From assembly GCA_964652315.1 (NCBI GenBank), contig CAZZBU010000004.1:1233-65232 (forward strand): a stretch of 64,000 nucleotides of DNA, in the 5' to 3' direction. Position 1 is the first letter of the stretch, and the number at the start of each line of letters is the position of its first letter. The translations under genes and the position numbers were made by a program. The notes beneath the pieces are model-generated. The model was given only the letters and a program-made list of their open reading frames with translations. It did not search any database and had not been told where the DNA came from. This stretch comes from an uncultured Bacteroidales bacterium (GTDB lineage: Bacteria; Bacteroidota; Bacteroidia; Bacteroidales; JAAAOM01). This document shows positions 7,625 to 45,469 of the stretch, one piece after another.

Positions 7625-7661
7625 AATCTGTTTGTTTTTCATTTTTAAGTCACTTCAGCAC

Positions 7662-14769: not shown

Positions 14770-14790
14770 AATGGATAAACAGATAAAAAT

Positions 14791-25370: not shown

Positions 25371-25404
25371 CCTTACAAGAGTTTCATTTGTGAATTTTGA
25401 CACT

Positions 25405-28952: not shown

Positions 28953-28973
28953 CTGTTTCTTTTTTCAAAAATA

Positions 28974-29609: not shown

Positions 29610-31250
29610 TCACGAATCAAATGCTATTATTCTCCCGTTTATCACTACGCCGTCCAGTCCCATAGTTTTAGCATCGTTCACAGCAGTTTGCGGGTAATGG
29701 ATTATGGGTTTGCCCTGCACATTGAAAGAGGTATTAATCAGTGCTTTGATGCCATAGTGTTCATCCAGGTAAACCAGCAAATCATAGATAAAAGGGATGG
29801 GTTCTTTTTCAAATACGGTTTGTATTCTGGCGGTGTTGTTAATGTGTACAGCCCCGGATAATTCTTCACGGTGCAATTCTGGGATGAAAAACTCCAGCAA
29901 CATGTATTGACTAAGATGATGGATGTTTTTGAGGCCGGTGAAATAGCGGGCATTTTTCACCAGCATGATGGGAGCAAGGGGCCTGTACCATTCACGTCCT
30001 TTAATCTGCATGCTCAGTTTTTTTGCCAGACCTGCTGAATCTGCCCGGCACAGAATACTGCGGTTGCCCAATGCACGAGGGCCTGTCTCTGAATGGCCAT
30101 TGCAGACACCGATAATTTTTCCTTCTGCAAGTAAACTGGCTGTCTGTTTCACATCCCCGGCAGTATATGAGTATTTCTCAGGCACATTAAGGGAGTTCAG
30201 AAATGGAGAATGAGGCAGGATTGGTATGTTTTTGTGGTATTGGAAAAATGCGGCAGCGCCCAGTGCCAGTCCTGAATCGTTGGTGCATGGGGGTATAAAT
30301 ACATCTTTAAATAACCTGCTTTCTACGATTCTGGCATTCAAAGGGATATTTAGCGCGGATCCTCCTGTATAATACAGGTAATCAACATCATAATGAGTTT
30401 TCAACTGAGAGAGTACCTCCATAAAATCACGTTCAAAAATATACTGAAACGTAGCGGCTATATCCTGCATAAAAGAATTCCGGTTGTCAATCGCTCCCAA
30501 GGTAATTCCCCATTGCTTTTTAAGACTTTCAAAAAAATGTTTTTTATTGGTCCAGATACCTTCGAAGAACCTGTTTTCTTTTAACCATATTTCCAATTCA
30601 GGCGAATATTTGCCACACGCTGCCAGCCCCATAAATTTCCCGGGTACTGCATTCTGATTCTCTCTGCTGCCCCCTGCCAAACTAAAAGTCAAGGCGTTGG
30701 CATTAAATAAATTCGACAGGTACTTCAAGCGCCATGATGTTTCAATAAGCTTTGGTTTACCGTCTTTATAAATCCAGACTGAGAAATTTCCTTTACTGGC
30801 ACCACCGTCAAAATGCACCAACAAACTTTTATCTTTAAAATCGCCAAAAAATGGCATGCAGCTAAAAATATGAGCCAACTCATGGTTTACGATATACCCC
30901 TTTTTTTCTTTCCCATACCACCGGAGAAGACCTTCCTCCGGCCATTCAGCCAGCGAATTTCCTAAGGGGGCCTCAAAACGGATATCTCCATCAAAAGAGA
31001 TAAACGATCGACCAATGACATTGTCGGTAAAAACAACCTCGGCATCATGATTTCCGGCCAGTTTCATCTCACGCATGAGTGGATACAAATATTCGTGCAT
31101 CCGGTTGTCATATTTTTTTCCGGTAAATCGTTCAAGCTGCATAAAGTGCCTGCATTTACCCCCTTCAAACACTGCGATGGCATGATCATGCACAAATTCT
31201 GGAAAATCAGACAACTTTATGTCCTGAATACCGTAAATACCGATTATCAT
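29610..31250 (-). CDS. NodU/CmcH-family carbamoyltransferase
   Basis: N-terminal ..IGIYG..HDHAIAV.. and ..NHELAHIFS.. metal-binding-type motifs. C-terminal ..RPLAPIM.., ..HINNTARIQTV.. and ..LINTSFNVQGKPII... The ATG at 31250 (MIIGIYG) is preferred over the listed upstream non-ATG start at 31289. Confidence 0.8.
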   Translation of the reverse strand: MIIGIYGIQDIKLSDFPEFVHDHAIAVFEGGKCRHFMQLERFTGKKYDNRMHEYLYPLMREMKLAGNHDAEVVFTDNVIGRSFISFDGDIRFEAPLGNSLAEWPEEGLLRWYGKEKKGYIVNHELAHIFSCMPFFGDFKDKSLLVHFDGGASKGNFSVWIYKDGKPKLIETSWRLKYLSNLFNANALTFSLAGGSRENQNAVPGKFMGLAACGKYSPELEIWLKENRFFEGIWTNKKHFFESLKKQWGITLGAIDNRNSFMQDIAATFQYIFERDFMEVLSQLKTHYDVDYLYYTGGSALNIPLNARIVESRLFKDVFIPPCTNDSGLALGAAAFFQYHKNIPILPHSPFLNSLNVPEKYSYTAGDVKQTASLLAEGKIIGVCNGHSETGPRALGNRSILCRADSAGLAKKLSMQIKGREWYRPLAPIMLVKNARYFTGLKNIHHLSQYMLLEFFIPELHREELSGAVHINNTARIQTVFEKEPIPFIYDLLVYLDEHYGIKALINTSFNVQGKPIIHYPQTAVNDAKTMGLDGVVINGRIIAFDS

Positions 31251-31256
31251 ATTGAT

Positions 31257-31264
31257 TAAATTTG
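31257..31264 (+). promoter_or_regulatory. Candidate -7 promoter element TAAATTTG upstream of the CheR-led operon
   Basis: Exact TAnnTTTG match on the plus strand, 138 nt upstream of the CheR ATG (31402). If used, it implies a long 5' leader that contains the repeated 12-mer at 31328-31339. Confidence 0.25.
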
Positions 31265-31327
31265 CCGATTGAATAAAAATGAATCGCAAATAAATTAAAT
31301 ATATTTATAATTAAAATTATTATATTA

Positions 31328-31401: not shown

Positions 31402-32241
31402 ATGACGATTACGGAACAAGATTTTCAGATATTTTTGTATGCCGTAAAAAGCAGTTCAGAATATGATTTTAGCGATTATTCTGAAAAATCTCTGAAGAGA
31501 AGGTTGGCGAAGGTCCTGTTAGATCATAAAACCAACATTACCCAGCTGGTCAGTAAGATTAAAAATGATAGAATTTTTCTTGAGAAAATAGTTCGGGACA
31601 TTACCGTAAATACCACCGAGCTTTTTCGCGACCCTGCCATCTGGCACGCCCTGAAATATAAAATCTTACCCAACCTGGCAAACAACGAAAACATCAATAT
31701 CTGGCATGCGGGATGCTCCACAGGACAGGAAGTTTATTCCATGATGATTTTGCTGAATGAACTGGAAATGCTTCATAAATGTAAAATTGTGGCCACCGAC
31801 CTTAACTCTGATGTATTGGATTTAGCAAAGCAGGGGACATACAAATACAGGTTTAACATCGGATATCTGGATAATTTCGATAAGGTGATTAAAGAAAATC
31901 CTTTCAACTATGAAGAATACAATGATGTACCCTATTCCAAATACTTTAGCATTGATAAGGAAAAAGACCAGATAGTCATACACAAGCAGTTTCGCAATAT
32001 ACCGGTATTTAAAAAGCACGATTTGGTCCATGATGAGAATACCGCTTATATAAAATTTGATTTAATCCTTTGCCGGAATGTAATTATTTATTTTAATTAT
32101 GCCTTGCAAAACAGAGTTTTTGACCTGTTTTACAGGAATTTGTATGAAAATGGTTATTTTATTCTGGGCATGCATGAAACCATTCTTGGCGACTTTGCCA
32201 ATAAGTTTCAAAAAAGAGGTCAGTATTATATAAAAAGTTAA
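31402..32241 (+). CDS. cheR: CheR-type protein-glutamate O-methyltransferase (canonical motifs)
   Basis: ..TTELFRDPAIW.., ..NIWHAGCSTGQEVYSM.. (SAM motif I), ..IVATDLNSDVLDLAKQGTY.. (acidic residue after beta2) and ..DLILCRNVIIYFN... Confidence 0.88.
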   Translation: MTITEQDFQIFLYAVKSSSEYDFSDYSEKSLKRRLAKVLLDHKTNITQLVSKIKNDRIFLEKIVRDITVNTTELFRDPAIWHALKYKILPNLANNENINIWHAGCSTGQEVYSMMILLNELEMLHKCKIVATDLNSDVLDLAKQGTYKYRFNIGYLDNFDKVIKENPFNYEEYNDVPYSKYFSIDKEKDQIVIHKQFRNIPVFKKHDLVHDENTAYIKFDLILCRNVIIYFNYALQNRVFDLFYRNLYENGYFILGMHETILGDFANKFQKRGQYYIKS

Positions 32242-32250
32242 CATTATAAC

Positions 32251-32262
32251 TATTATATTAGA
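32251..32262 (+). repeat. 12-nt motif TATTATATTAGA (copy 2)
   Basis: Identical to 31328-31339. Lies 31 nt upstream of the ATG at 32293. Confidence 0.6.
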
Positions 32263-32292
32263 CAAATTCTTGTATTAACGCTTGACTAAAAT

Positions 32293-34989
32293 ATGTTAAA
32301 ATCTTTTGATACAATAAGAATAAAGCTATGGTCTGTTTTAGGATTAATAACTGCAGGCTGGATTATTTTTGGTATCATTTCCCTGACCTCTCATGGAAAG
32401 TTGTCTAATTATCAACAGCTAAATGACCAGATTACCCAATATAAAAATGGCCTTGAGGCAATTAAAGACAGTTTCGAAGGACTAAGTGCTGTATCTGTCA
32501 GGCAAACAGGTACGGAAGATGAGGAGAAAGCGGATAATTTTACAGCTTCTTTAAATGAAGCTATAAGCAGGCTTAATCACCTGACTGCCCAAATTACAGA
32601 AAACCATTTTTTCTATTCTTCAGAATCAAATGAAGTATTGCTGCTTATGGTGGATGAAAATCTGAATGACTTACAGGAAGATCATACCACCATCATTGAA
32701 CTTATTCAGGAACGCAACCTGGAGGAAACAGGCGCCGTTAGCCAATGGAATACTGAAGCGCGATTGCTTTCCGAAATTGGCTCGGTAAGCAACAATAACT
32801 TTGTACAACGTAACATTGCCCAGCTCGTTCGCTATAAATCCGCTTACCTGAGCACGCCCGATGAGGCCATTATTCATGCTATAACTGTTGAAGGAGAACA
32901 GCTTAAAAATGACATACAGCAAGATACCTTGATGTTTCCTTCAGAAAAAGACCAGTTGGCCGCTGCAATCAATGATTATATGGCTGCAGCAAACAGTGTG
33001 CTGGAAAAAGATATCCGCATTGGGCTGACACACCAATCCGGGCTGGTTGGCAATGCCCTTGGTAATATATCGGACATGCAACAACAGCTGGACAATATCA
33101 GTGACAATATTCTTTCCGTATACCAAACCATTAAATTACGCTCACAAGCTGTCTTATGGATATTCTGGATCCTTTTTGTTCTGGTAATTATCGGGCTTTC
33201 GCTTCTTACGGTGCATTATTTTACCAATGCCACTGGCAGGATTGCCCGCTTTATCAATCAAATGTCAACCGGCAGTACTCCGGAAAAGATTCATCTTGAC
33301 ACCAACGATGAATTTAACAGCATCGCAAGCGGACTAAACAAACACATGGAACATCTTCAGGAAAAGATTGCCTTTGCCACCAGCATGGCCGAAGGAATAA
33401 CGGATGTTGAATTTAACCCGGCCGGGAAGGAGGACGATCTGGGCAATGCCTTGTTGTCTCTGAGTGAAAATCTGGAGAAGACCAAAAAAGAAGAAGAGAA
33501 AAATGCGATTGAAAGCCAAAAGCGCAGTTGGACCAACGAGGGCTTGGCCAAATTTGCCGATATCCTGAGACAAAATAATGATAATCTTGACAAGCTTGCT
33601 GATAACCTTATTATCAGTCTGGTAAAGTACATTGAAGCTACCCAGGGCGGCATTTTTCTTATTAATGATGATAATGCAGACAATCCAATCCTGGAATTAA
33701 AGTCTTCTGTTGCCTATGACAGAAGAAAATTTGTACAGCGTACATTTGAAATGGGTGAAGGATTGGTAGGGACAGTGGCAGTTGAGAAAAAAAGCATCTT
33801 GCTCACCGAAATTCCTCAGGATTACATGGAGATAACAAGCGGACTGGGCGAAGCCGAACCCGATTGCCTCCTGATTGTGCCCCTGAAACTCGAAAACAAA
33901 ATACTTGGAGTGCTCGAACTGGCTTCTTTTAATGTTTTTCAACCGCACGAAGTCGATTTTATTGAAACCATTGGCGAAAGCATTGCCTCTACGCTCACCA
34001 CGGTGCGGGTGAATGAGCGGACTGCCGAACTGCTTGAAAAATCGCAGCGGCAGGCTTCTGAAATGGCCGAACAGGAGGAAGAAATGCGCCAGAATATGGA
34101 AGAACTTCAGGCAACACAGGAAGAAGCATCCAGACGCGAAACCGAAATTACCAGCATCCTCAATGCAGTTCATTCCACATCCCTTGTAGTGGAGTATGAT
34201 CTGGATGGGAATATCCTGAATATCAATGAAAAATTCCTCAAATTGATGAATCTTCCCAAAAGAGATATCATTGGCATTCATCACAGTGATTTTACAGCTA
34301 AAAACCGCACAGAAAACGTGTACATTGAATTCTGGAATACCATGCTAAAAGGAGAAGCCGTGAACAATACCGAAGTGATAAAACTACCTACCGGGAAAAA
34401 GCTCTGGCTCAATCAAAGTTACACACCCATTTTAAATCAGGAGGGTAAACCCACCAAGATAATTAATATAGCTGTTGACATTACAGCTACAAAAACTACA
34501 GAACAGGAACTTGAAAAAAAATCAAGGGAGGTATTGCATAAAACCAATGAATTCAATACGCTGAATACGGCAATCAACCAATCCATTATTAAAAGTGAAT
34601 TTAAGCCGGACGGTACCATTGTGGATGCCAACGATAATTTTGCTGCCATGCTGGGATATCCCCTGAAGGACATTCTGAATAAAAACCTTTGGGATTTTAT
34701 GAATGATGAGGAAAAAGACGTGCTGGACAGCTTCTGGGCAAACCTTGTCAATAAATCTACCCATAAAACCAACCTTAAACGTATAAAACCCAATGGGGAA
34801 ATTCAATGGCTAATATCCACTTTTACCCCGGTGATTGATGATGATGCCAATGTATATAAAATTTATTATCTGGCACAGGATATTACAGAACAGAAAATGA
34901 AATATGAGCTTCTGGTTGAAGCAAACAAAGAAATAGATCGCCTTAAGCACCTGTTGGGTGAAAAAGGAACTGACCAACAAAAGAGTTAA
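32293..34989 (+). CDS. Membrane sensor protein: TM, ~250-aa extracytoplasmic helical domain, TM, HAMP, GAF, Glu-rich coiled coil, PAS, PAS. No recognisable output domain
   Basis: TM1 LWSVLGLITAGWIIFGIISL and TM2 VLWIFWILFVLVIIGLSLLTV. HAMP-like ..RIARFINQMSTGSTPEKIHLDTNDEFNSIASGLNKHMEHL... GAF ..ATQGGIFLIND...GEGLVGTVAVEKKSILLTEIPQDYMEITSGLGEAEPDCLLIVPLK..ILGVLELASF... Coiled coil SQRQASEMAEQEEEMRQNMEELQATQEEASRRE. Two PAS/PAC units end in ..IAVDITATK.. and ..LAQDITEQK... The protein stops 30 aa after the second PAS. Confidence 0.8.
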   Translation: MLKSFDTIRIKLWSVLGLITAGWIIFGIISLTSHGKLSNYQQLNDQITQYKNGLEAIKDSFEGLSAVSVRQTGTEDEEKADNFTASLNEAISRLNHLTAQITENHFFYSSESNEVLLLMVDENLNDLQEDHTTIIELIQERNLEETGAVSQWNTEARLLSEIGSVSNNNFVQRNIAQLVRYKSAYLSTPDEAIIHAITVEGEQLKNDIQQDTLMFPSEKDQLAAAINDYMAAANSVLEKDIRIGLTHQSGLVGNALGNISDMQQQLDNISDNILSVYQTIKLRSQAVLWIFWILFVLVIIGLSLLTVHYFTNATGRIARFINQMSTGSTPEKIHLDTNDEFNSIASGLNKHMEHLQEKIAFATSMAEGITDVEFNPAGKEDDLGNALLSLSENLEKTKKEEEKNAIESQKRSWTNEGLAKFADILRQNNDNLDKLADNLIISLVKYIEATQGGIFLINDDNADNPILELKSSVAYDRRKFVQRTFEMGEGLVGTVAVEKKSILLTEIPQDYMEITSGLGEAEPDCLLIVPLKLENKILGVLELASFNVFQPHEVDFIETIGESIASTLTTVRVNERTAELLEKSQRQASEMAEQEEEMRQNMEELQATQEEASRRETEITSILNAVHSTSLVVEYDLDGNILNINEKFLKLMNLPKRDIIGIHHSDFTAKNRTENVYIEFWNTMLKGEAVNNTEVIKLPTGKKLWLNQSYTPILNQEGKPTKIINIAVDITATKTTEQELEKKSREVLHKTNEFNTLNTAINQSIIKSEFKPDGTIVDANDNFAAMLGYPLKDILNKNLWDFMNDEEKDVLDSFWANLVNKSTHKTNLKRIKPNGEIQWLISTFTPVIDDDANVYKIYYLAQDITEQKMKYELLVEANKEIDRLKHLLGEKGTDQQKS

Positions 34990-35009
34990 TTACTTTTATT
35001 GTTATATTG

Positions 35010-35837
35010 ATGGAAGGACCGGAAATAGGGATAGTTGAAACACGTAACATTATTCGGATACTCAAGGAAAAATACAACCTGGATTATTCGAATCATGCCT
35101 TAACATCGTTAAAACGGCGTTTGGAGCGGTGTATCCTTATCAATAACCTTAAAAATGCTGAAAATCTAATTTTAAAACTTACCGATAGTCCGGATTTTAT
35201 TAACAAGTTCCAGGTTGACATTGCTGTTGAGTCCACTGAGATGTTTCGTGATCCTTCTTTGTGGCGTTGGTTGCGTGATGAGTTTTTGCCTGAGCAAATC
35301 CGTCCCAACATCAGTTACAGCATCTGGTTACCTGAGTGTGTTTCAGGAGATGAATTGTTCACCTTATGCACGGTATTAAATGAAGCCGGGTATCAGGATA
35401 AAGTAAAAATTATTGCTACATCTTACAGTCAGGCACTCATAGACCGGATCCGAAGTGGTGAACTGCGGTTTAAAAAGATTGATACCAGCAGCGAGAACTA
35501 TACCCGTTTTCATGGTATCCGCGATTTTACCGATTATTATAATCTCATTGATAACACAGCAATCCGGGATGTGTCCATGATATCGCTTGTCGAATTCAGG
35601 AAGCATGACATTACAGAAGATGCTCCATTAAGGGATATAAAGCTTATCCTGTTTCGTAACCGAATGATATATTATAACCCTACATTACAGTCCAGGGTAC
35701 TGGCAAAACTTCACCAGAGCCTGAGTTTTAATGGGCATCTGGTAATCGGAACCATGGAGAACCTTGTAAGTTTTATTAAAAACAATGAATTTACAGTTGT
35801 CAACCAAAATGAAAACGTATTTAAAAAACGTGGCTAG
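35010..35837 (+). CDS. Divergent CheR-like protein with degenerate SAM-binding motifs (possible pseudo-methyltransferase)
   Basis: CheR fold markers are retained (..STEMFRDPSLW.., ..LILFRNRMIYYN..). Motif I reads IWLPECVSGDE instead of IWxAGCSTGEE. The post-beta2 acidic residue is missing (IIATSYSQALI vs IVATDLNSDVL in the neighbouring CheR). The ATG at 35010 directly follows the listed TTG at 35007. Confidence 0.7.
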   Translation: MEGPEIGIVETRNIIRILKEKYNLDYSNHALTSLKRRLERCILINNLKNAENLILKLTDSPDFINKFQVDIAVESTEMFRDPSLWRWLRDEFLPEQIRPNISYSIWLPECVSGDELFTLCTVLNEAGYQDKVKIIATSYSQALIDRIRSGELRFKKIDTSSENYTRFHGIRDFTDYYNLIDNTAIRDVSMISLVEFRKHDITEDAPLRDIKLILFRNRMIYYNPTLQSRVLAKLHQSLSFNGHLVIGTMENLVSFIKNNEFTVVNQNENVFKKRG

Positions 35838-35842
35838 AAGAA

Positions 35843-36403
35843 ATGTATAAAGCAGTTATCATAGGTGGATCAGCCGGAAGTTTTCAGGTGGTAACAAAAA
35901 TATTAAGTTCCCTGCCTCAGAATTATCCGGTTCCGGTTTTATTATGCCTGCACCGGTTAAAGCATGTACGTTCAGGTTTTGTTGAAGCCCTGTCGCTCAA
36001 ATCAAGTATTCCTGTTATTGAACCTATTGACAAGGAACAGCTGAAGCCTGGAAAAGCGTATCTTGCACCTGCCAACTACCACATGTTTCTTGAGCTGGCA
36101 AACCGGGTGGCTTTATCCACAGAGGAGCCGGTGAACCATTCACGCCCCTCCATCGATCTGTCATTTATTACTGCTGCCCATGCCTATCGCAAAGCTTTGG
36201 TTGGCATTATTTTATCCGGGGCAAATAAAGACGGGGCACTAGGACTGAAAAAAGTACACGAACTGGGAGGTACTACCATTGTTCAGGATCCTGAGGAATG
36301 TGAGGTCCGTACCATGACAGAATCTTCCCTGCAACTTACGCAGGTGGATCACGTTTACAGAACTGATAGCATCATTCAATTTTTACAAAAAATAAATCGC
36401 TAG
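35843..36403 (+). CDS. cheB: CheB-type protein-glutamate methylesterase catalytic domain, no receiver domain
   Basis: 186 aa. Ser/His/Asp triad candidates appear in the expected order and context: VIIGGSAGSF, LLCLHRL, ILSGANKDGA. Also ..GGTTIVQDPEE... There is no N-terminal REC domain. Confidence 0.8.
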   Translation: MYKAVIIGGSAGSFQVVTKILSSLPQNYPVPVLLCLHRLKHVRSGFVEALSLKSSIPVIEPIDKEQLKPGKAYLAPANYHMFLELANRVALSTEEPVNHSRPSIDLSFITAAHAYRKALVGIILSGANKDGALGLKKVHELGGTTIVQDPEECEVRTMTESSLQLTQVDHVYRTDSIIQFLQKINR

Positions 36404-36413
36404 TTTATCGTTT

Positions 36414-37193
36414 ATGAAAAATGCCGGGTTACATAGATTATTTTCTACAACATCCATAATTGCACTTATCGTTGTTGCCTGGATGCTCCCGTTGAGAATA
36501 CAGCAATTAGTCGGACATGCTGAGTATGCAGGCAGTGTATCTGCAGTAAATGTGCTTATCGGCATCATTGTAATCCTGGCCATTATCCTGTATATCCTTA
36601 GCCTGCAGCGACCTGTTAAAGAAGTAATAAAAGAAAAGGTTGTTGAAAAAACAGTAACCATAACCGAAAGGGAGGCTGAGAATAAAGAATCAGAAGAAGA
36701 AGAAGGTATTGACCTGAAAGAGATTGAGCGAGCAGCGAAAAACATCATTCCCGATCAGAAAAAATCGAAGACTACAGAAGAATTTACTGAAAAACTGCTT
36801 TCAAACCTTGCCAAAGAATTTGAGATAGTCCAGGGTGTGGTTTTCATCAAAGAAAAGTCAGGAGAAATCTTTAACCCATCTGGCAAATATGCCTATTTCC
36901 TTGATGAGCCGCCAAAATCTTTTAAAGAAGGGGAAAGCATTCCCGGTCAGGTTGCTAAAAATCAAAAACTTATTGTGATCGACGAAATACCTGAAGGCTA
37001 TCTTAAAGTGATTTCCGGACTGGGTGATTCGCATCCCCGGTATTTAATGATTGCCCCTGTTATGCATAAAGGCGAATGCATTGCTGTAATTGAACTGGCA
37101 TCGTTCAAAAAAACCGGTAAAAAGGCAGAAGTTACCCTGGAAAAAGTTTCTGAATTAATTTCAAACACGATTGTTGAACTTAATAAGGCTTAA
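36414..37193 (+). CDS. Small membrane-anchored GAF-domain protein (2 TM, acidic linker, GAF)
   Basis: TM segments IIALIVVAWMLPL and VLIGIIVILAIILYILSL. Acidic linker EREAENKESEEEEG. The GAF domain ..VQGVVFIKEKSG...GESIPGQVAKNQKLIVIDEIPEGYLKVISGLGDSHPRYLMIAPVMHKGECIAVIELASF.. is paralogous to the GAFs of both flanking sensors. Confidence 0.7.
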   Translation: MKNAGLHRLFSTTSIIALIVVAWMLPLRIQQLVGHAEYAGSVSAVNVLIGIIVILAIILYILSLQRPVKEVIKEKVVEKTVTITEREAENKESEEEEGIDLKEIERAAKNIIPDQKKSKTTEEFTEKLLSNLAKEFEIVQGVVFIKEKSGEIFNPSGKYAYFLDEPPKSFKEGESIPGQVAKNQKLIVIDEIPEGYLKVISGLGDSHPRYLMIAPVMHKGECIAVIELASFKKTGKKAEVTLEKVSELISNTIVELNKA

Positions 37194-37202
37194 GAGAAAG
37201 AT

Positions 37203-39806
37203 ATGAGTAATCAGCACAACAATAATTCCAAATTGAACCTGGTTTTTACATGGTTTGCCATTGGATTTATTATACCTGTACTTGCCTGGCTTATCCTGAT
37301 GTCAACTCAGGACGTGTTATTGACCTTTGATGGGTTCGCAGGCATCCACAAATCAAATCCTGCCCTCTGGTTTACATATCTTTTTCCGGTATTACTTGCT
37401 GCTTTTGTTTATGTCAACAGTAAAAATCAAAAGAAACTTGCCGAACATTTCACCAATAAGCTCGATGAACGGGAAAAAAAGCTGAACATCATTGCCGAAT
37501 TTGCCAAAGAGATTGGGGAGGGCAACTACTCCAGCGAACTTAATATGGAAGGGGAAGCTGATTTGTTGCAGAATTCCCTTTTGCTCATGCGCGATAACCT
37601 CAAAGCAAACCATAAACAGGAGAGCGACCAGAACTGGATTGCAGAGGGTAAAGATATTATTTCCAATATACTCCGCATGCACAATAAAATGGATGAACTA
37701 TCCTACGATGTGCTTGTGAACCTGATAAAATACATCCGTGTTATTCAGGGCGCCCTGTATCTTTACGATAATGAACGTGAAGTACTGGTTAATGCTGCTA
37801 CGTATGCCTATAACCGCAAAAAATACCTCACCCAGGAGTTTAAAATCGGGCATGGATTAATCGGTCAATGTGCTTATGAAATGGACATTATCTATCGGAC
37901 GGAGATTCCGGATGATTATGTTACCATTACCTCTGGCCTTCTTGGCGATAAAAAGCCCAGGAGCATCCTGATTGTACCACTTATATCAGATGAAAAACTT
38001 CAGGGGGTCATTGAATTTGCTACCCTTGACGATCACTTTTCGGAACTTACCATACAGTATCTTCGAGAACTGGGCGAGATAATTGCCCGTACCATCTTTA
38101 ACCTGAAGGTCAATCAAAGGACTGAAAATTTACTTCGCGAGTCCCAGAAAATGACTGAAGAGCTTCGTGAAAACGAAGAACAACTCAGGCAAAATGCTGA
38201 AGAGATGCGGGCTACGCAAGAAGAACTGGAAAAATCCAATGAAAAACTTGAGCTACAGATTCAGCAGGTTGAAAATGCTCAAAAACGCCTGTATTCCTTG
38301 TTGGAAAATGCCTCTGAGATCATCTCCATTTACGATGAAAACAAGAAGATGACCTATGTAAGCCCGTCGGTCATAAAAATTCTTGGATTCAAGCCCGAGG
38401 AGATGATGAACGGTAAGGATTTCGACCGGCTTACCCGGCGCGGTGAAGCATCCATCAACGAAATGTTTGATTTTCTCCTGAAAAACCCCAAGGAATCCTA
38501 TACCATACAGTACACCTACATGAAAAAAGATGGAGAAAAAATCTTCATCGAAGCCACCGGACGCAACCTGTTGAAGGATCCTGCCATTAAGGGCATCATC
38601 ATCAACTCTCAGGATATTACTGAACGGAAACGGGCAGAGAAGGAGGAACGCCTGAAAAGTAAAATGCAATCCCTCTCTGAAAACTCCCTGGATATGATTA
38701 TCAGGCTGAGCACCTCAGGACAGTTTTTTTATGCCAACCCGGTAGTGGAAGATTATCTGGGCCTCAAACCAAAGGATCTGATAAATAAAACCATCAGGAG
38801 CGTCCGTTTTAATGCCACCCTGCAGGAATCCATGCAGGAAACCATAAATGACATTAAGTCCGATCCCCGGAAGATTAATTATGAGTTGGTTTTAAAAACC
38901 GATGATGATCAGGAAGAACCTCAGTACATGAGCATTGATGCAATTCCGGAATTCAATGAAAACGAACTGGAAACAATCCTTTTCGTGGGCCACGATATTA
39001 CAGAGGCTAAACGCATTGAGCAGGAAATCCAGGAGAAAAACAAAAAAATTGAGGACAGCATTAATTACGCCGAACGTATTCAGGGATCCATTCTTCCGGA
39101 TAACAACATCATTCGCGAGGTGTTGCCAAAATCTTTCATTTTCTACGTACCGCGCGATATTGTATCCGGCGACTTCCCCTGGTTCTTCAAGAAAAACGAT
39201 AACATTTACATTGCTGCTGTTGACTGTACCGGCCATGGTGTTCCAGGTGCTCTGCTCTCTTTCATTGGGTATTTTATCCTCAACAACATTGTTGACCGCG
39301 ACGTTGACTTCTCTGCCGCGGAAGTATGTGACCAGTTGCATTATGGCGTACGTAGCACCCTCAAGCAGGATCGTGAAGGCGCCAATGCCCGTGACGGGAT
39401 GGACATTGCCTTGTGTAAAATCAATTTCAATAAAAACCAAGTGCAGTTTGCCGGAGCGCATCGCCCCTTGTACCTGTTAAGGGATGGTGAGCTGCAGGAA
39501 TTTAAAGGCGATCGTAAAGCCATTGGTGGAATCCCGCACAAAAAGAAACAGGAAAAGGACTTTACCAACTATGTAATCAACTTTCAGAAGGAAGATAAAA
39601 TATTCTTTTTCTCCGATGGATTACCTGACCAGTTAGGCGGACCGGAAAAGAAGAAATATCAGGCGAAACGAATCCGTGAAGCCATCACAGAACATAAGGA
39701 TTTTTCAATGGAAGGGTTTCATAAATACTTTGAACAAGATTTTCTGGCCTGGAAAGGTAACACGAAGCAGATAGATGACGTATTACTAATCGGAATTGAG
39801 TTTTAA
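37203..39806 (+). CDS. SiaA-like sensor phosphatase: 2 TM, HAMP-like, GAF, Glu-rich coiled coil, PAS, PAS, PP2C (SpoIIE/RsbU-type) Ser/Thr phosphatase
   Basis: GAF ..IQGALYLYDNE..GHGLIGQCAYEMDIIYRTEIPDDYVTITSGLLGDKKPRSILIVPLI..LQGVIEFATL... Coiled coil ESQKMTEELRENEEQLRQNAEEMRATQEELEKSNE. PAS/PAC ends ..NSQDITERK.. and ..VGHDITEAK... PP2C motifs ..AERIQGSILP.., ..VSGDFPWF.., ..AAVDCTGHGVPGALLS.., ..DGMDIALC.., ..FFFSDGLPDQ.., ..IDDVLLIGIEF. Confidence 0.85.
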   Translation: MSNQHNNNSKLNLVFTWFAIGFIIPVLAWLILMSTQDVLLTFDGFAGIHKSNPALWFTYLFPVLLAAFVYVNSKNQKKLAEHFTNKLDEREKKLNIIAEFAKEIGEGNYSSELNMEGEADLLQNSLLLMRDNLKANHKQESDQNWIAEGKDIISNILRMHNKMDELSYDVLVNLIKYIRVIQGALYLYDNEREVLVNAATYAYNRKKYLTQEFKIGHGLIGQCAYEMDIIYRTEIPDDYVTITSGLLGDKKPRSILIVPLISDEKLQGVIEFATLDDHFSELTIQYLRELGEIIARTIFNLKVNQRTENLLRESQKMTEELRENEEQLRQNAEEMRATQEELEKSNEKLELQIQQVENAQKRLYSLLENASEIISIYDENKKMTYVSPSVIKILGFKPEEMMNGKDFDRLTRRGEASINEMFDFLLKNPKESYTIQYTYMKKDGEKIFIEATGRNLLKDPAIKGIIINSQDITERKRAEKEERLKSKMQSLSENSLDMIIRLSTSGQFFYANPVVEDYLGLKPKDLINKTIRSVRFNATLQESMQETINDIKSDPRKINYELVLKTDDDQEEPQYMSIDAIPEFNENELETILFVGHDITEAKRIEQEIQEKNKKIEDSINYAERIQGSILPDNNIIREVLPKSFIFYVPRDIVSGDFPWFFKKNDNIYIAAVDCTGHGVPGALLSFIGYFILNNIVDRDVDFSAAEVCDQLHYGVRSTLKQDREGANARDGMDIALCKINFNKNQVQFAGAHRPLYLLRDGELQEFKGDRKAIGGIPHKKKQEKDFTNYVINFQKEDKIFFFSDGLPDQLGGPEKKKYQAKRIREAITEHKDFSMEGFHKYFEQDFLAWKGNTKQIDDVLLIGIEF

Positions 39807-39836
39807 CCTAAAATTATTTATTAATATTCGGAAGTT

Positions 39837-40415
39837 ATGAATTTTGACAAAAAAGACATGAAAGGCTTTCTGGAGTTCGTCTACGAATTCTACAAATCGA
39901 TGAAAGCGCATGAGATTACCCTGGTATACGAAGGTGAAATAACGCACCAGATTACGAAAGCATTTACTTCCTTAACCGAATCAAACATGGCCAAGGAAGA
40001 AGAATCCGGAAGCGTTCAGCGAAAAGTTTTCCATGTAATGGTTGAATGCCTGCAGAACATAAGCAAGCACGCTGAAGATTTTGGTACCGATGATTATCTG
40101 TTTTCCGGGCGGGGTATCTTTCTGGTTAGCAAAGGCGAAAATGAATACAGTGTAACCACCGGTAATGCTGTTGAAAACGACAGGATTGAAGAACTTTCCA
40201 CCATGCTCGAAAAAATAAACACCATGGATAAGGACGAGCTGAAAGAGCTCTACAAAAAACAAATGAAAGAAGGACGCCTGTCAGAAAAAGGTGGTGCCGG
40301 TCTTGGTTTCATCGACATTAAACGAAAAACCGGTAAAGAACTGGAATATCATTTCCTGCCTATTAATGACGATACATCGTTCTTTTTACTTACATCAACT
40401 ATTTCCCGTTCATAA
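39837..40415 (+). CDS. SiaB-like GHKL-fold Ser/Thr protein kinase (RsbW/SpoIIAB-like partner-switch kinase)
   Basis: 192 aa. N-box-like ..VMVECLQNISKHA.. and G-box-like ..SEKGGAGLGFIDIKRKTG... It sits between a PP2C gene and a DUF1987-like gene, the same order as siaA-siaB-siaC. Confidence 0.65.
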   Translation: MNFDKKDMKGFLEFVYEFYKSMKAHEITLVYEGEITHQITKAFTSLTESNMAKEEESGSVQRKVFHVMVECLQNISKHAEDFGTDDYLFSGRGIFLVSKGENEYSVTTGNAVENDRIEELSTMLEKINTMDKDELKELYKKQMKEGRLSEKGGAGLGFIDIKRKTGKELEYHFLPINDDTSFFLLTSTISRS

Positions 40416-40436
40416 GAAAACCCCAAAATTTAACGT

Positions 40437-40811
40437 ATGGAAACGATTAAGATTGCAGGAACAGATGATACTCCTGAAGTAGTTCTTGACCGGGAAAATA
40501 ATATTTTCAGTATATCAGGACGCTCGTTGCCGGAAGATGTGGCATCGTTTTATGAACCCATTCTTAACTGGCTCGATGAATATATAGAAAATCCCAATGA
40601 TAGTACCGTATTTGACTTCAAACTGGTGTATTTCAACACAGCATCTTCCAAATTATTACTGGATGTGCTTATGAAGCTTGAAGTACTGGCTGAAAACGAT
40701 AAAGAAATCCTTGTCAAATGGCACTTCCCCGAAGAAGATGAAGACATGGAAGAAGCCGGTGAAGAATATGCTGATATCGTTGATATTCCCTTTGAGCACA
40801 TTGCCTATTAG
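40437..40811 (+). CDS. SiaC-like DUF1987-family regulatory phosphoprotein
   Basis: 124 aa. ..IKIAGTDDTPEVVLDRENNIFSISGRSLPEDVASFYEPILNWLDEY..FDFKLVYFNTASSKLLLDVL.. matches the DUF1987 pattern (TP.v.f......l.i.G.S.PE....FY.P...W......l.YfNtsSsK). Candidate phospho-acceptor is Thr68 (codon 40638-40640). Acidic C-terminal tail. Confidence 0.7.
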   Translation: METIKIAGTDDTPEVVLDRENNIFSISGRSLPEDVASFYEPILNWLDEYIENPNDSTVFDFKLVYFNTASSKLLLDVLMKLEVLAENDKEILVKWHFPEEDEDMEEAGEEYADIVDIPFEHIAY

Positions 40812-40834
40812 AATCAGCATCTGATTCTTTTTTT
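40810..40834 (+). terminator. Rho-independent terminator closing the CheR-to-SiaC operon
   Basis: AGAATCAG-CAT-CTGATTCT is a perfect 8-bp inverted repeat (or 7 bp with a 5-nt loop). It overlaps the TAG stop and is followed directly by a T7 run. Confidence 0.7.
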
Positions 40835-40950: not shown

Positions 40951-43900
40951 ATGAGTGAAGAGATTCTAAGGGCCCTGATGCAACTGTTTGCTATCATTGC
41001 AAAACAGGATGAAGGGGTTGAAGATAATGAAATAGAATATGTAAAAAACTTCCTTACCCAGCAATTGAATGAAGCTGCTGTGAAGGAATATTTTACCCTT
41101 TTCGAAAAAAATGCCGGCCTGCTGCAAGACAGCAAGCGTGAGCGCATTCAAAAGCTTACCTCAGTAAAGGATTCGGTTCGTATCCTTGGCCTTTGTAAAA
41201 AAATTAATAAAAGCCTAACCCAGGAACAGAAAGTTGTTGTATTGGTACGTCTGTTTGAGCTCGTCAATGCCGACAGGAAATTTTCCGAGCAACGCATGGC
41301 CATTATCAATACAGTAGCCGATGTATTTATTTTTTCACCCGAAGAATTCAAAAGCATTGAATCGTTTGTAATCAATAACGATACAGAGGGATTGATCGAT
41401 CCCAACCTGATGATCATTAACGATAAGGAAGAATCCTACGATCAGTGTAAACATATCCGAACAGAAAAGCTGGATACCAACATTTTTATCCTGCGTATTC
41501 CCAGTGTGGACCTTTACTTTCTGAAGTATACCGGAAGAGAAACCCTGTACCTTAACGGGTTAACACTCAATAATAAAAGGATTTATCTGTTTGCCAATGG
41601 TAGCACCGTTAAACTGCCAAAAGGCAAACCCATCTATTACAGCGATGTAGTGGCCCACTACATGACAGACATTACGGCCAACAAAATCTCTTACGTGGTA
41701 AACGATATCGAATTTCGTTTTCCGAATGGCAATGTTGGTTTGCGTAATATCAGTTTCTCAGAAAACCATGGCAAACTTATCGGTATTATGGGTGCCAGCG
41801 GTGCCGGTAAAACCACCCTGCTTAATGTATTGTCTGGCATTGAAAAGCCTTCGCAGGGGCAGGTACTCATCAACGGCATTGATCTGCACCGTGAGAAAGA
41901 TAAACTGGAAGGAGTAATTGGCTTAATTCCACAAGACGATTTGCTTATTGAGGAGCTAACCGTTTTTGAAAACCTGTATTACAATGCCAAGCTTTGTTTT
42001 AAAGATAAATCAGAAGAAGAACTGGTACAGCTTGTGGATAAAACACTGGGCAACCTTGGCCTTCTCGACAGAAAAGATTTGAAAGTAGGCTCCCCCCTGA
42101 ATAAAACCATCTCCGGGGGCCAGCGCAAAAGGTTGAACATTGCCCTGGAACTTATCCGGGAGCCTTCCATCCTGTTTGTTGATGAACCTACTTCAGGGCT
42201 TTCATCGCGCGACTCGGAGAATGTGATGGACCTGCTTCGTGAGCTTGTGCTCAAAGGCAAACTCATTTTTGTGGTTATCCACCAGCCATCGTCCGATATC
42301 TATAAGATGTTCGACAAGATGTGCATACTGGATACCGGCGGATACCTTATTTATTACGGTAATCCGGTAGAGGCTGTCATGTACTTCAAACGCCTCGACC
42401 AGCAGATTAACAGCGATGTGGGCGAATGTCCAACCTGCGGTAATGTTAATCCCGAACTGATTTTTAACATCATCGAATCTAAAATCGTTGATGAATTTGG
42501 GAATTATACTTCCTTCCGTAAGGTAGAACCCCGTGAATGGGAAGAACATTACCAGGAGGAGATAGAGCTTGAACCAGCACAGGTTATCAAGGAAAAGCCA
42601 CCCAAAGGCTTAAATATTCCAAACTGGTTTAAACAGTTTAAAATATACACCCTGCGCGATTTCTTTTCGAAAATCAGCAACACCCAGTACATTGCACTTA
42701 ACCTGCTGGAAGCGCCTATCCTGGGTTTTATTTTGTCGTACATCATCCGGTATATTGCAGATCCCAGTTCGGATAAGTATATTTTCCGCGAGAACGAAAA
42801 CATCTCCATATATATTTTTATGGCATTAATCGTGGCCCTCTTTTTGGGGCTGATGGTGAGTGCCGAAGAAATTTTCCGCGACCGGAAAATCCTGAAACGT
42901 GAAGCCTTTTTGAACCTCAGCCGATCGAGTTACCTGGTTTCAAAAATTGTAATCCTCTTTGTAATTTCCGCCATTCAGTCCTTTACTTTCCTCATCATTG
43001 CCAATACTATTTTAGGCATCGACGGCATGTTATTTCATTACTGGTTGATTCTGTTCTCCACAGCAGCCTTTGCCAACATGCTGGGCCTCAATATTTCGGC
43101 TACATTTAATTCGGCAGTGACTATTTATGTACTTATTCCCCTGCTGATGATTCCCATGATGATCTTATCCGGGGCCATGTTCAGCTTTGATAAGCTCAAC
43201 CGAAAGGTAAGCAGTGTGGATAAGGTGCCGGTAATAGCTGAGTTTATGGTTACAAAGTGGGCTTATGAAGCGCTTATGGTACATCAGTTTAAGGATAATA
43301 ATTATAAAAAATTGCTGTATCCGCTCGAGAAAAATGAAAGTGTTGCCGACTTTAAAACCGTTCATCTGCTCCCGGCGTTGTTTACTGAACTCGAGCAGGC
43401 AAATGAGGAACTGGAAGTGAACGGAAAAATTGAGGAAACAGCGGATAATGTAATTACCCTGAAGAATGAAATTGGTAAATTTCTCAGGAAACATAGCAAC
43501 CTCAAGTTTGAGAACTACGAAGATTTGAGTCCGGAAACGTTTACAAAGCAGCATTATTATCAGATAGATGAGTTTTTAAACATGCTGAACGTTAGTTATC
43601 AGAAAGTTTATATGGATGCTATTCAGGAAAAGGAACAAAGAATAAATGCCTGGCTGGAGCAGGATCCTGAAAAGTATTACCGCGTTCGAAACAACTATCA
43701 TAACGAGAGCGTGGCTGACATAGTAATGAAAGTGTACGAGAAGAACAAGATTCTGAAGTATGATAATGAATACACCCAGAATTTTCATCCCATTTACCAG
43801 GATCCTGTGGTTACCGGACCGCTTGATTTTCGATCGCACTTTTATGCACCCCGGAAACACTTTCTTGGAACATTTTATGATACTTTTTGGTTTAATGTAA

Positions 43901-44040
43901 TTGTTATCTGGTTGCTTACTATCATTCTGTATATCAACCTGTATTATGAACATTACAGTAAACTGCTCGGCTTGATGGGAAAAATAAATTTTGAGAAAAT
44001 TAAACCCTCAAAGCTTTTCCCCGTAAAAAAGGAAGATTAA
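40951..44040 (+). CDS. Fusion protein: TerB-like N-terminal domain, unassigned ~120-aa region, ABC ATPase (ABCG/White-like), ABC-2-type membrane domain, ~270-aa C-terminal extension with terminal TM
   Basis: The N-terminus ..LMQLFAIIAKQDEGVEDNEIEYVKNFL... ..LVRLFELVNADRKFSEQRMAIINTVADVF.. has a TerB-like two-repeat helical pattern. Walker A GIMGASGAGKTTLLNVLSG (41791-41817), signature ISGGQRKRLNIALEL, Walker B ILFVDEPTSGLSS and H-loop VIHQPSS, typical of ABCG-type half transporters. Six hydrophobic segments cover aa ~600-770. Confidence 0.8.
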   Translation: MSEEILRALMQLFAIIAKQDEGVEDNEIEYVKNFLTQQLNEAAVKEYFTLFEKNAGLLQDSKRERIQKLTSVKDSVRILGLCKKINKSLTQEQKVVVLVRLFELVNADRKFSEQRMAIINTVADVFIFSPEEFKSIESFVINNDTEGLIDPNLMIINDKEESYDQCKHIRTEKLDTNIFILRIPSVDLYFLKYTGRETLYLNGLTLNNKRIYLFANGSTVKLPKGKPIYYSDVVAHYMTDITANKISYVVNDIEFRFPNGNVGLRNISFSENHGKLIGIMGASGAGKTTLLNVLSGIEKPSQGQVLINGIDLHREKDKLEGVIGLIPQDDLLIEELTVFENLYYNAKLCFKDKSEEELVQLVDKTLGNLGLLDRKDLKVGSPLNKTISGGQRKRLNIALELIREPSILFVDEPTSGLSSRDSENVMDLLRELVLKGKLIFVVIHQPSSDIYKMFDKMCILDTGGYLIYYGNPVEAVMYFKRLDQQINSDVGECPTCGNVNPELIFNIIESKIVDEFGNYTSFRKVEPREWEEHYQEEIELEPAQVIKEKPPKGLNIPNWFKQFKIYTLRDFFSKISNTQYIALNLLEAPILGFILSYIIRYIADPSSDKYIFRENENISIYIFMALIVALFLGLMVSAEEIFRDRKILKREAFLNLSRSSYLVSKIVILFVISAIQSFTFLIIANTILGIDGMLFHYWLILFSTAAFANMLGLNISATFNSAVTIYVLIPLLMIPMMILSGAMFSFDKLNRKVSSVDKVPVIAEFMVTKWAYEALMVHQFKDNNYKKLLYPLEKNESVADFKTVHLLPALFTELEQANEELEVNGKIEETADNVITLKNEIGKFLRKHSNLKFENYEDLSPETFTKQHYYQIDEFLNMLNVSYQKVYMDAIQEKEQRINAWLEQDPEKYYRVRNNYHNESVADIVMKVYEKNKILKYDNEYTQNFHPIYQDPVVTGPLDFRSHFYAPRKHFLGTFYDTFWFNVIVIWLLTIILYINLYYEHYSKLLGLMGKINFEKIKPSKLFPVKKED

Positions 44041-44101: not shown

Positions 44102-44127
44102 TTCAATATTCACAAACAAGTTTGTAT

Positions 44128-45027
44128 ATGTTAAGGAATCTGATAAAAACCTTGATTATTTTGTTTGTTATTTCCGGCTGCAGGTCGGGAAATAATAGAA
44201 ATGAAGAATTGGAATTGCCACTTCCTGAAAGTGGCCAGGAAGAACTTGCAGTAGCTGACGAAACCATGGAGGAGATTGTCTCCCATGTATCGTCACCCAT
44301 TGAAATGGCAGCTCTGATTAAAGATTTGGGCGTACCGTTTTCAAAGGAATATCTGGCTACAACCGAATATGTTGATGAGTATGTGACCAGTTCGAAAAAG
44401 GCTTTTGGCCTTGGTATTTTTGGTGCCGATATGGGTTATCTTAATATGTATGAAAAAAATACCCAGGTGGTGGATTATCTTTCGGCCATAAAAACACTGG
44501 CTGATGGAATCAATGTAGGTCAGTTTTTTGACTTCCCAACACTAAAGAGGCTGGCCACCAACAGCCAGAACATCGACAGCCTGATGTACATTTCAGTACA
44601 CAGCTTCAATGAAATGGATAAATACCTGCGCAATAACCAAAGAGGTAACCTGAGTTCACTGATGATTACGGGGGTATGGGTGGAAGGACTTTATCTGGCT
44701 ACCCAGGTGGCCAAAACCAGTGCTTCGGAAAAACTGGCCGAACGTATTGGTGAGCAAAAGAAAGTATTGCAGCAACTCATGATTATCCTTCAAAACTACA
44801 AGCGGGATAAATTCATTGCGGATCTGATTGAAGACCTCAGGGTGATTGAAACCCTTTTCGAAGATGTGCAGATAACCATTGAGGTTGCAGAACCCGAAGC
44901 AGTAGAAGAGGATGGTATGCTGGTTATCATTCAGAATGAAACAAGCACCGTTCATATTTCGGATGAAACATTGCAGCAGATAACACAACAAACTGAAGAA
45001 ATAAGAAATAAGTTAATAAGTTTATAA
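44128..45027 (+). CDS. Lipoprotein of unknown function (predicted all-helical)
   Basis: Lipobox LFVISGC follows the ATG at 44128 (the listed ORF begins at TTG 44122). I recognise no family motifs. Its stop is 1 nt from the next start, consistent with translational coupling. Confidence 0.6.
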   Translation: MLRNLIKTLIILFVISGCRSGNNRNEELELPLPESGQEELAVADETMEEIVSHVSSPIEMAALIKDLGVPFSKEYLATTEYVDEYVTSSKKAFGLGIFGADMGYLNMYEKNTQVVDYLSAIKTLADGINVGQFFDFPTLKRLATNSQNIDSLMYISVHSFNEMDKYLRNNQRGNLSSLMITGVWVEGLYLATQVAKTSASEKLAERIGEQKKVLQQLMIILQNYKRDKFIADLIEDLRVIETLFEDVQITIEVAEPEAVEEDGMLVIIQNETSTVHISDETLQQITQQTEEIRNKLISL

Positions 45028-45028: not shown

Positions 45029-45469
45029 ATGAAAAGTATTATTCTACTTTCTTTCCTAGCAATAATCTCTTTCGGAAGCGTTCATGCCCAGATGGAGGAG
45101 GCCCTTGTAAGGGAATGTGCGAAGAGTATAGGTGAAGAAGCAACTTATCTGAAGGATTTTGTGGTTGACCTTGGCCCGGCTGAAGCCGACGGACGTCCGC
45201 CACAATCGAAATTTTCCATGGTGTTGAGTAAAAACACTGTATATAAATTTACCGTCTGTAATTCAGATACCAAACCCGGAAAAGGAGTCATTCAGTTGTT
45301 CGACACCAACCGGATGCTTGGTAGTTCCTATATGGAAGCTACAGGCAAGGATTATCAGGGATTTGAATTCAAATGCCAGAAAACCGGGGTGTACCACCTT
45401 TTTGTTCATTTCCAGGAAGGAAAACCCGGAATGGCGGTGTGTATTATTTCTTATGTGGAAACGATGTAA
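45029..45469 (+). CDS. Small secreted protein of unknown function
   Basis: Signal peptide MKSIILLSFLAIISFGSVHAQ. 146 aa with four Cys. No family recognised. Confidence 0.6.
   Translation: MKSIILLSFLAIISFGSVHAQMEEALVRECAKSIGEEATYLKDFVVDLGPAEADGRPPQSKFSMVLSKNTVYKFTVCNSDTKPGKGVIQLFDTNRMLGSSYMEATGKDYQGFEFKCQKTGVYHLFVHFQEGKPGMAVCIISYVETM

Follow-up and report, generated by a model that had tools for sequence, protein, structure and literature searches.

The stretch analysed here, a 64-kb window (64,000 nucleotides) of contig CAZZBU010000004.1 from an uncultured Bacteroidales bacterium, carries a cluster of eight genes (g1 to g8) in which CheR- and CheB-type methylation enzymes are encoded together with GAF/PAS sensors and with relatives of the Pseudomonas aeruginosa partner-switching proteins SiaA, SiaB and SiaC. 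Comparative evidence from predicted proteins and gene order gives good support for a coupling of Che-type methylation to a partner switch of the SiaABC type. Action of CheR and CheB on the GAF/PAS sensors of this switch is the best reading of the cluster, because an invariant coiled-coil motif in the sensors matches the methylation consensus of methyl-accepting chemotaxis proteins (MCPs). An earlier sequence-only reading of this DNA had already proposed that the Che enzymes are wired to the sensors of a partner switch. The consensus-like coil in both sensors, the enzyme assignments and the conservation of the cluster speak for that proposal, whereas its claim of novelty and the limits that it set to the unit had to be corrected.

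Organization of the gene cluster

An open reading frame (ORF) scan of the window placed the eight co-directional genes on the + strand at 31402-40811, with intergenic spacings from g1 to g8 of 51, 17, 5, 10, 9, 30 and 21 nt. An 8-bp hairpin followed by a run of seven T (T7) at 40810-40834 overlaps the stop codon of g8. These results reproduced the coordinates reported earlier for the eight genes, their 5-51 nt spacing and the hairpin with T7. The features of the cluster and of the genes that follow it are listed below, with S-adenosyl methionine abbreviated as SAM and transmembrane as TM.

g1, 31402..32241, + strand: CheR-type protein-glutamate methyltransferase, 279 aa, SAM motifs intact
g2, 32293..34989, + strand: accessory membrane sensor without output, consisting of TM, an external region of ~250 aa, TM, weak HAMP, GAF, coiled coil, PAS and PAS
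g2 coiled coil, 34006..34152, + strand: aa 572-620, with candidate methylation sites, QEEEMRQNMEELQATQEE
g3, 35007..35837, + strand: CheR-fold protein with degenerate SAM-binding motifs
g4, 35843..36403, + strand: CheB methylesterase catalytic domain without receiver, 186 aa
g5, 36414..37193, + strand: membrane protein with two TM segments and a single GAF, no coil
g6, 37203..39806, + strand: sensor phosphatase (SiaA-like) with two TM segments, HAMP-like linker, GAF, coiled coil, PAS, PAS and PP2C
g6 coiled coil, 38097..38288, + strand: aa 299-362, with candidate methylation sites, NEEQLRQNAEEMRATQEEL
g7, 39837..40415, + strand: SiaB-family Ser/Thr protein kinase with a GHKL-like fold
g8, 40437..40811, + strand: SiaC-type (DUF1987, STAS-like) phosphoprotein, predicted acceptor Thr68
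hairpin and T7, 40810..40834, + strand: terminator-like, 3' of g8
g9, 40951..44040, + strand: TerB fused N-terminally to an ABCG/White-type ABC transporter (nucleotide-binding domain, then transmembrane domain), 1029 aa
g10, 44122..45027, + strand: conserved lipoprotein, helical bundle and small sheet
g11, 45029..45469, + strand: 146-aa protein with signal peptide and no known family, following g10 in relatives

Searches with Pfam and NCBIfam profiles upheld all of the enzyme assignments made before (CheR, CheR-like, CheB, PP2C, SiaB-like and DUF1987-like). Among the ORFs of at least 150 aa in the 64-kb window, Pfam detected neither CheA or CheW nor an MCPsignal or GGDEF domain, so that the reported lack of CheA, CheW, an MCP signalling domain and a diguanylate cyclase holds within this scope. 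The gene tables of five related loci likewise contain no CheA, CheW, MCP or GGDEF gene.

Conservation of the cluster

The g3 protein has more than 600 relatives, and the loci of three of them (67%, 51% and 49% identity) carry the eight genes in identical order. A g3 profile, run against a single genome of each GTDB species, matched at least 572 stretches; the best 80 loci were kept, and their ORFs were searched with the window proteins. The genes g3, g4, g6, g7, g8 and g9 occur in the same order in 64 of these 80 loci, and the other 16 are all cut by contig ends. The core is thus shared by at least 64 species of Bacteroidota. The loci belong to Bacteroidales, Cytophagales (Marivirga lumbricoides, Flexithrix dorotheae, Algivirga pacifica and Fulvivirga) and Sphingobacteriales, with protein identities of 37-67%. 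No locus with the methylation genes apart from the Sia-like genes was found among the 80.

Three variants of the cluster can be distinguished. Variant A, represented by the window, has the order g1-g2-g3-g4-g5-g6-g7-g8, and variant B (L040, L058 and L073) lacks g2. Variant C, found in Cytophagales and Sphingobacteriales, lacks g1 and usually g2; its only CheR occupies the g3 position, and its g6 is longer (~1,150 aa), with a periplasmic sensor region of its own and a clear HAMP domain. The universal core consists of one CheR, CheB, the GAF protein, the PP2C sensor, SiaB and SiaC, while g1 and g2 are lineage-specific add-ons. The earlier view of the eight genes as one unit is thus correct as far as the order, which is conserved across orders, is concerned, but it has to be amended in that g1 and g2 are additions and the unit runs past the hairpin. 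A NodU/CmcH-type carbamoyltransferase gene, g0, lies divergent from g1 at 29610-31289 (- strand) and is kept at this position in only ~16 Bacteroidales loci. It was left out as a member of the system, as it is conserved only in this subset of the Bacteroidales loci.

Methylation enzymes

The g1 protein matches CheR_N and CheR in Pfam (E = 8e-39) and is restricted to Bacteroidales-type loci, and its SAM motifs IWHAGCSTGQEVYS, ATD133LN and CRNVIIYF are invariant in all 53 of 53 orthologues. The CheR fold is also kept in g3 (CheR_N and CheR, E = 1.5e-23). In loci with g1, the corresponding motifs of g3 read IWLPxCVSGxEL and A-S/T-x-x-S, and the ribose-binding Asp is replaced by S, V, T or Y; this motif alignment agrees with the previous description of a second CheR with degenerate SAM motifs. 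In loci without g1, the protein at the g3 position carries the canonical IWHAGCSSGEE and ATDID in 25 of 29 sequences. The remaining four, with degenerate motifs and seemingly no g1, come from Bacteroidales contigs cut by contig ends. Degeneration of g3 and presence of g1 correlate exactly, and an active CheR is always kept where g3 is degenerate.

By position, g3 is the orthologue of the single active CheR in the Cytophagales loci. Because the motifs at this position are canonical without g1 and degenerate with it, the ancestral system is reconstructed as having a single active CheR, to which the Bacteroidales added an extra active one, usually together with g2. The original copy then probably became a pseudo-methyltransferase, with a presumed loss of activity. 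Conservation of TEMFRDPSLWR and LILFRN in the degenerate g3 suggests that a binding role was retained, and g3 is probably a pseudo-methyltransferase or a substrate-binding adaptor.

The g4 protein matches CheB_methylest as its only Pfam family (E = 5e-48) and aligns to the CheB structures 3SFT, 1CHD and 1A2O, and its catalytic triad S10/H37/D130 is invariant in 80 of 80 sequences. It covers only residues ~155-350 of the full-length CheB models of NCBIfam, and its orthologues are all short (184-222 aa, 80/80). The profile searches detected no N-terminal receiver domain, which confirms the earlier assignment of this 186-aa protein as a CheB catalytic domain without a receiver. Lacking the receiver domain, which inhibits the enzyme, such a CheB should be constitutively active, as judged from the Salmonella CheB.

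Phosphatase, kinase and phosphoprotein of the switch

The C-terminal 260 residues of g6 match the NCBIfam SiaA model (2e-48), and its PP2C part aligns to the SiaA-PP2C crystal structure 6K4E (1e-32) with invariant metal-binding motifs SGDF, VDCTGHG, DGMD, DQ and DDV. The g7 protein matches the SiaB_fam_kinase/DUF6272 family (NCBIfam, 1.5e-52; 178 bits against a cut-off of 85 for NF038262) and aligns to SiaB (6KKO_A). Both its N box (ExxQN) and its G box (KGGAGLG) show no variation in 67 sequences. The g8 protein matches SiaC/DUF1987 in Pfam (6e-41) and aligns to SiaC (6K4F/6KKO) with T68 matched (LYLNTSSIK vs VYFNTASSK), and its YFNTASSK is invariant in 67 of 67 sequences. With such profile matches and invariant key residues, the previous assignments of g7 as a SiaB-like kinase and of g8 as a DUF1987 protein are confirmed. 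The phosphosite of P. aeruginosa SiaC has been mapped experimentally to T68 (peptide LLYLNTSSIK), and the predicted phospho-acceptor of g8 is Thr68. Scores against the NCBIfam equivalog models are far under the cut-offs (165 vs 700 for SiaA, 87 vs 225 for SiaB, 85 vs 150 for SiaC), and g6, g7 and g8 are therefore regarded as members of these families rather than as orthologues of the Sia proteins.

Sensors and the conserved coiled coil

Pfam identified a GAF and two PAS domains in g2, where two TM segments flank the external region of ~250 aa, and neither Pfam nor NCBIfam detected an output domain. In g6, two TM segments, a GAF, two PAS domains and SpoIIE/PP2C were found. The HAMP domain that had been assigned to both proteins is less certain. 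When isolated coil and linker segments were searched with Pfam at E ≤ 5, the HAMP match was weak in g2 (E = 0.013-0.07) and absent in g6. The described architectures of g2 (TM-sensor-HAMP-GAF-coil-PAS-PAS without output) and g6 (2TM-HAMP-GAF-coil-PAS-PAS-PP2C) otherwise stand. Cytophagales orthologues carry clear HAMP domains, and the Fulvivirga counterpart of g2 has the arrangement PilJ-HAMP-GAF. The g5 protein is, as reported before, a 2TM-GAF protein; its GAF shares 29-30% identity with those of g6 and g2, representing a subtype common to these proteins, and the gene is present in 60 of 64 complete loci.

The linker between the GAF and the first PAS domain is a predicted coiled coil in both g2 and g6. 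In g6, the stretch NEExLRQNAEEMRATQEEL is ~97% invariant across 72 orthologues (about 70/72), and 14 of 15 consecutive residues are at least 90% conserved. The mean column identity of the g6 coil (0.77) exceeds that of the PP2C catalytic domain (0.69), and columns at least 90% conserved make up 47% of the coil vs 32% of the PP2C domain. In g2, the 18 consecutive columns of QEEEMRQNMEELxATQEE are 85-100% conserved in 47 orthologues, and the coil is the most conserved segment of the protein (mean column identity 0.76, compared with 0.65 for the GAF and 0.2-0.37 for the PAS domains). Both coils share the nearly invariant pattern RQN-x-EE-x-x-AT-QEE. Such conservation is unusual, since surface positions of coiled coils normally vary.

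Candidate Glu pairs recur in both coils with a spacing of seven residues, at E333/E334 and E340/E341 of g6, with a further pair at E325/E326, and at 596/597, 603/604 and 610/611 of g2. The coil matches the older six-residue methylation consensus EExxA(S/T). In a count over ~1,200 ORFs of at least 150 aa from all loci, EExxA[ST]xEE occurred in 66 of 80 g6 and 54 of 63 g2 proteins, and in 1 of 528 unrelated ORFs. The coils of g2 and g6 are thus likely to bear methylation sites, as judged from these motifs. An acidic linker in g5 was considered as a further methylation site and rejected, as the region is not conserved.

The coil is not confined to the cluster. When 1.8 billion representative proteins were searched exhaustively with the g6 coil, 1,657 of them matched at E ≤ 1e-3. 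Among ten sampled proteins with a single copy, seven carry SpoIIE (PP2C, g6-like) and the others have no output domain, and neither HisKA/HATPase nor GGDEF was present in the ten. The coil family is larger than the operon and therefore supports a dedicated "methyl-accepting" module, and the CheR and CheB of the operon may service many receptors. MCP genes are likewise scattered relative to che operons.

Proteins with several copies of the coil include P0241, P0268, P0248 and P0253 (L088:10001-15970, L089:10001-12778 and L090:8207-14575). P0268 has six copies with an exact 70-residue period, which follow one GAF domain with no PAS between the copies.

Downstream transporter genes

The g9 protein matches TerB (5e-11), ABC_tran (3e-33) and ABC2_membrane (1.5e-21) in Pfam, and TIGR00955 with 1.7e-81. 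Its TerB part is an extra cytoplasmic module that is highly conserved and has no transport role. The gene lies directly 3' of the SiaC gene in all 64 of 64 complete loci, with a g8-g9 gap of mostly 24-60 nt (median ~45 nt over 68 loci). Most Bacteroidales loci have no hairpin in this gap, whereas the window and many Cytophagales loci do. The hairpin is therefore better read as an attenuator that only some loci possess than as the boundary of the system, and it probably acts as a partial terminator or attenuator separating the regulator genes from those of the transporter.

In P. aeruginosa, the gene of the SiaC target SiaD comes directly after that of SiaC, and its authors have proposed the regulation of neighbouring proteins as a general role of the DUF1987 family. 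As g9 always follows g8 in the way that SiaD follows SiaC, g9 is, by analogy, the likely target of the SiaC-like protein, and its TerB domain would be the best candidate docking site for g8. The sequence-only reading had named no target and had closed the unit at the hairpin. The TerB-ABCG transporter and the lipoprotein, which follow SiaC in all loci that reach that far, extend the unit and supply a candidate target.

The lipoprotein gene g10 is present in 60 of 64 loci, and a lipobox was found in 47 of 58 sequences. Its homologues number more than 2,600 and are without exception annotated as "hypothetical". An AlphaFold2 model (pLDDT 80) consists of a helical bundle and a four-stranded sheet, and Foldseek found no structural neighbour below E = 0.13 in the PDB. 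Neither the g10 nor the g11 family matched NCBIfam or Pfam. The g10 protein is presumed to be a partner of the transporter, and it is also a candidate new domain family. A role as a defence system was rejected, since PADLOC gave only generic ABC-ATPase matches for g9.

A second ABC transporter gene (1,007 aa), followed by a 151-aa ORF and a g10-like ORF of 297 aa, was observed at L004:1-2472 and also in L008. In L004, from a Bacteroidales genome of 6.7 Mb, this module stands upstream of the cluster at a distance of ~14 kb. The transporter has no TerB Pfam match on record, and the module looks paralogous, apparently without Sia/Che genes of its own.

Comparison with known systems

[quoted passage not shown] As described there, MAC1 incorporates CheB and CheR domains and MAC2 is associated with separate ones. 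The same papers state that MAC systems are sometimes the sole Che-like components of a proteome and that they are implemented in MiST3. The present cluster resembles MAC2, as far as these descriptions go, in its stand-alone CheR and CheB beside a non-MCP coil protein, with no need of CheA or CheW. It also shares a coil with MCP-like sites, namely the heptad-spaced EE pairs and EExxAT of g2 and g6, and separate cheB and cheR genes in the same operon (64 of 64 complete loci). In contrast, MAC proteins are described as receptor and kinase, whereas g6 carries a PP2C and g2 no output. A SiaB/SiaC switch and a transporter are not mentioned in the accessible literature on MAC, and the likeness is drawn from the later descriptions only. 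As read from the sequences, the locus would combine an adaptation module of the MAC type with a switch of the SiaABC type. The earlier statement that no example had been described was too strong, as CheA-less CheR/CheB systems on non-MCP coiled-coil proteins (MAC1/MAC2) had, according to the same descriptions, already been defined. With this precedent, the methylation concept is not wholly new. The PP2C/SiaB/SiaC output next to a transporter appears to be undescribed, and literature searches found neither a paper linking Sia/DUF1987 proteins with CheR/CheB nor a description of the cluster.

The SiaABCD system of P. aeruginosa likewise consists of a membrane sensor PP2C, a GHKL-like kinase and a DUF1987 phosphoprotein with Thr68, and the gene of the SiaC target is directly downstream. 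It differs in that the SiaD/GGDEF position is occupied here by the TerB-ABCG transporter, the sensor part of g6 is GAF-coil-PAS-PAS rather than the HAMP-containing N-terminus of SiaA, and CheR, CheB and a GAF protein are added.

The Wsp system (WspA-F, WspR) and the alternative-cellular-function pathways share with the cluster a CheR/CheB-type adaptation acting on a non-motility output. However, Wsp signals through a bona fide MCP together with CheW and CheA, and its output is a receiver-GGDEF protein; none of these was found among the window ORFs of at least 150 aa, and the CheB found here has no receiver. Some chemosensory classes (e.g., the F-class) include STAS genes in their gene order. 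Pathways that connect chemosensory components with STAS or anti-sigma-antagonist proteins are similar in linking Che components to a STAS-like partner switch, but they signal via CheA and CheY-type phosphotransfer, whereas here the putatively methylated sensor itself carries the PP2C.

Proposed mechanism and alternative explanations

In the proposed mechanism, the sensor phosphatase g6 and the kinase g7 would determine the phosphorylation state of g8 at Thr68. In its unphosphorylated form, g8 would, as SiaC does with SiaD, bind and regulate the product of the next gene, the transporter g9, which would work with the lipoprotein g10 and the small secreted protein g11. Reversible glutamate methylation would reset the sensor gain, with the active g1 and the constitutively active g4 acting on the heptad-spaced Glu pairs in the GAF-PAS coil of g6 and on the same coil motif in the accessory sensor g2. 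The g3 protein would have lost SAM binding after g1 was acquired and was probably kept as a substrate-binding adaptor, and the membrane GAF protein g5 probably modulates g6. That the coil is methylated, and that methylation tunes the PP2C activity and gives adaptation, is inferred from the sequences. Che-type methylation tuning a SiaABC-type partner switch is, on balance, the probable mechanism. The locus would then be an adapting sensor of the chemotaxis kind whose output is not swimming. The complete pathway, in which SiaC would also control the transporter, is put forward tentatively. The broadest form of the proposal is a CheA-independent adaptation in which coil methylation tunes a SiaB/SiaC switch that gates an ABCG-type transporter post-translationally via TerB, with the same enzymes serving GAF-(coil-PAS)n receptors genome-wide; it may hold, and we regard it as speculative to a similar degree.

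Several observations weigh against this mechanism. The strict ten-residue MCP consensus [ASTG]2-x2-[EQ]2-x2-[ASTG]2 was unmatched in every cluster protein in a regular-expression search, and the isolated coil and linker segments showed no MCPsignal similarity in Pfam. Many of the matches to the g6 coil belong to GAF-(coil-PAS)n proteins of Bacteroidota, in which QEEE[LM]RQN[LM]EEL.ATQEE[LM] is present in 3-9 copies, and the four multi-copy proteins named above are not adjacent to CheR/CheB. In the window and in many Cytophagales loci, moreover, a hairpin and T-run separate g8 from g9. The coil could accordingly be a structural signalling helix, or the multi-copy proteins could be the main substrates. 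If the coil were merely such a helix between GAF and PAS, CheR and CheB would have another substrate or be relics, and the departure from the MCP consensus and profile, together with the fact that Glu-rich heptads are common in coiled coils, would fit. This explanation is very unlikely in our judgement, given the run of nearly invariant residues on a coil whose surface would normally vary, the strict purifying selection on the catalytic residues of g1 and g4, and the retention of an active CheR wherever g3 degenerates. The occurrence of multi-copy coil proteins in Bacteroidota with no CheR/CheB nearby would be expected if the methylation enzymes and the partner switch were functionally separate, with CheR and CheB mainly serving the scattered GAF-(coil-PAS)n proteins or a canonical Che system elsewhere and sharing no more than a location with the Sia-like genes, as che operons do with only some MCPs. 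However, g6 itself bears the invariant motif, and the order CheR-CheB-GAF-PP2C-SiaB-SiaC is kept in every complete locus with 5-30 nt spacing, so we consider such a separation unlikely. It is also compatible with g6 being one substrate of several, which would extend the mechanism of coil methylation acting on the switch and not replace it.

The SiaC-like protein might instead act on a target that is encoded elsewhere, such as a diguanylate cyclase or a partner of the anti-sigma type, with the transporter being a conserved neighbour or transcriptionally regulated. The terminator-like hairpin between g8 and g9 would suit this arrangement, as would the fact that the only characterised SiaC partner is a GGDEF protein. 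The invariable position of g9 immediately 3' of g8 across three orders, the lack of GGDEF in the window ORFs of at least 150 aa and the extra TerB module at the N-terminus of g9 nevertheless argue for control of the transporter, and a target elsewhere seems to us rather unlikely, if still worth considering. The sequence-only reading had also raised the possibility that the eight genes are a chance juxtaposition peculiar to one genome. The gene order is shared by Bacteroidales, Cytophagales and Sphingobacteriales (64 complete loci, with the protein identities given above), which leaves practically no room for it, and this possibility is regarded as excluded.

Other genes in the window

Upstream of the cluster, a polysaccharide-utilisation-like block at 2439-16407 (+ strand) encodes SusD, GH28, two GH88, GH43 and three proteins with C-terminal sorting domains of the type IX secretion system, and fits the degradation of pectin or unsaturated uronide. 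It is followed by the gene of a 1,074-aa TMEM260-like protein O-mannosyltransferase homologue at 22023-25247 (- strand) and by a 959-aa ORF at 25390-28269 (+ strand), which has no Pfam family save a faint Tricorn_N match. Isochorismatase-family and macro-domain genes lie at 28347-29513 (- strand), between the 959-aa ORF and the carbamoyltransferase gene. Two further sensor kinases are encoded downstream, dCache-HAMP-PAS-HisKA-HATPase at 49995-52412 (+ strand) and a hybrid HisKA-HATPase-receiver at 57123-59945 (- strand), and the coil motif is absent from both.

Implications

Methylation-based adaptation is a textbook feature of bacterial chemotaxis and, to our knowledge, has been studied almost only on MCP-CheA arrays. 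The cluster is compact and open to tests in cultured Bacteroidota that lack flagella, among them Marivirga lumbricoides, Flexithrix dorotheae and Algivirga pacifica, as the locus offers candidate methylation sites, a phospho-switch with a known acceptor residue and a candidate effector. If the proposed mechanism is true, a sensory memory would have been grafted onto Ser/Thr partner switching, and the role of SiaC/DUF1987 proteins would extend beyond cyclic di-GMP. Under the broadest form of the proposal, methylation-based adaptation would for the first time have an output that is not a kinase, and adaptive control of the chemotaxis kind would for the first time act on a transporter. Confirmation of the mechanism would also give a function to the conserved, uncharacterised TerB-ABCG/lipoprotein module of many environmental Bacteroidota species.

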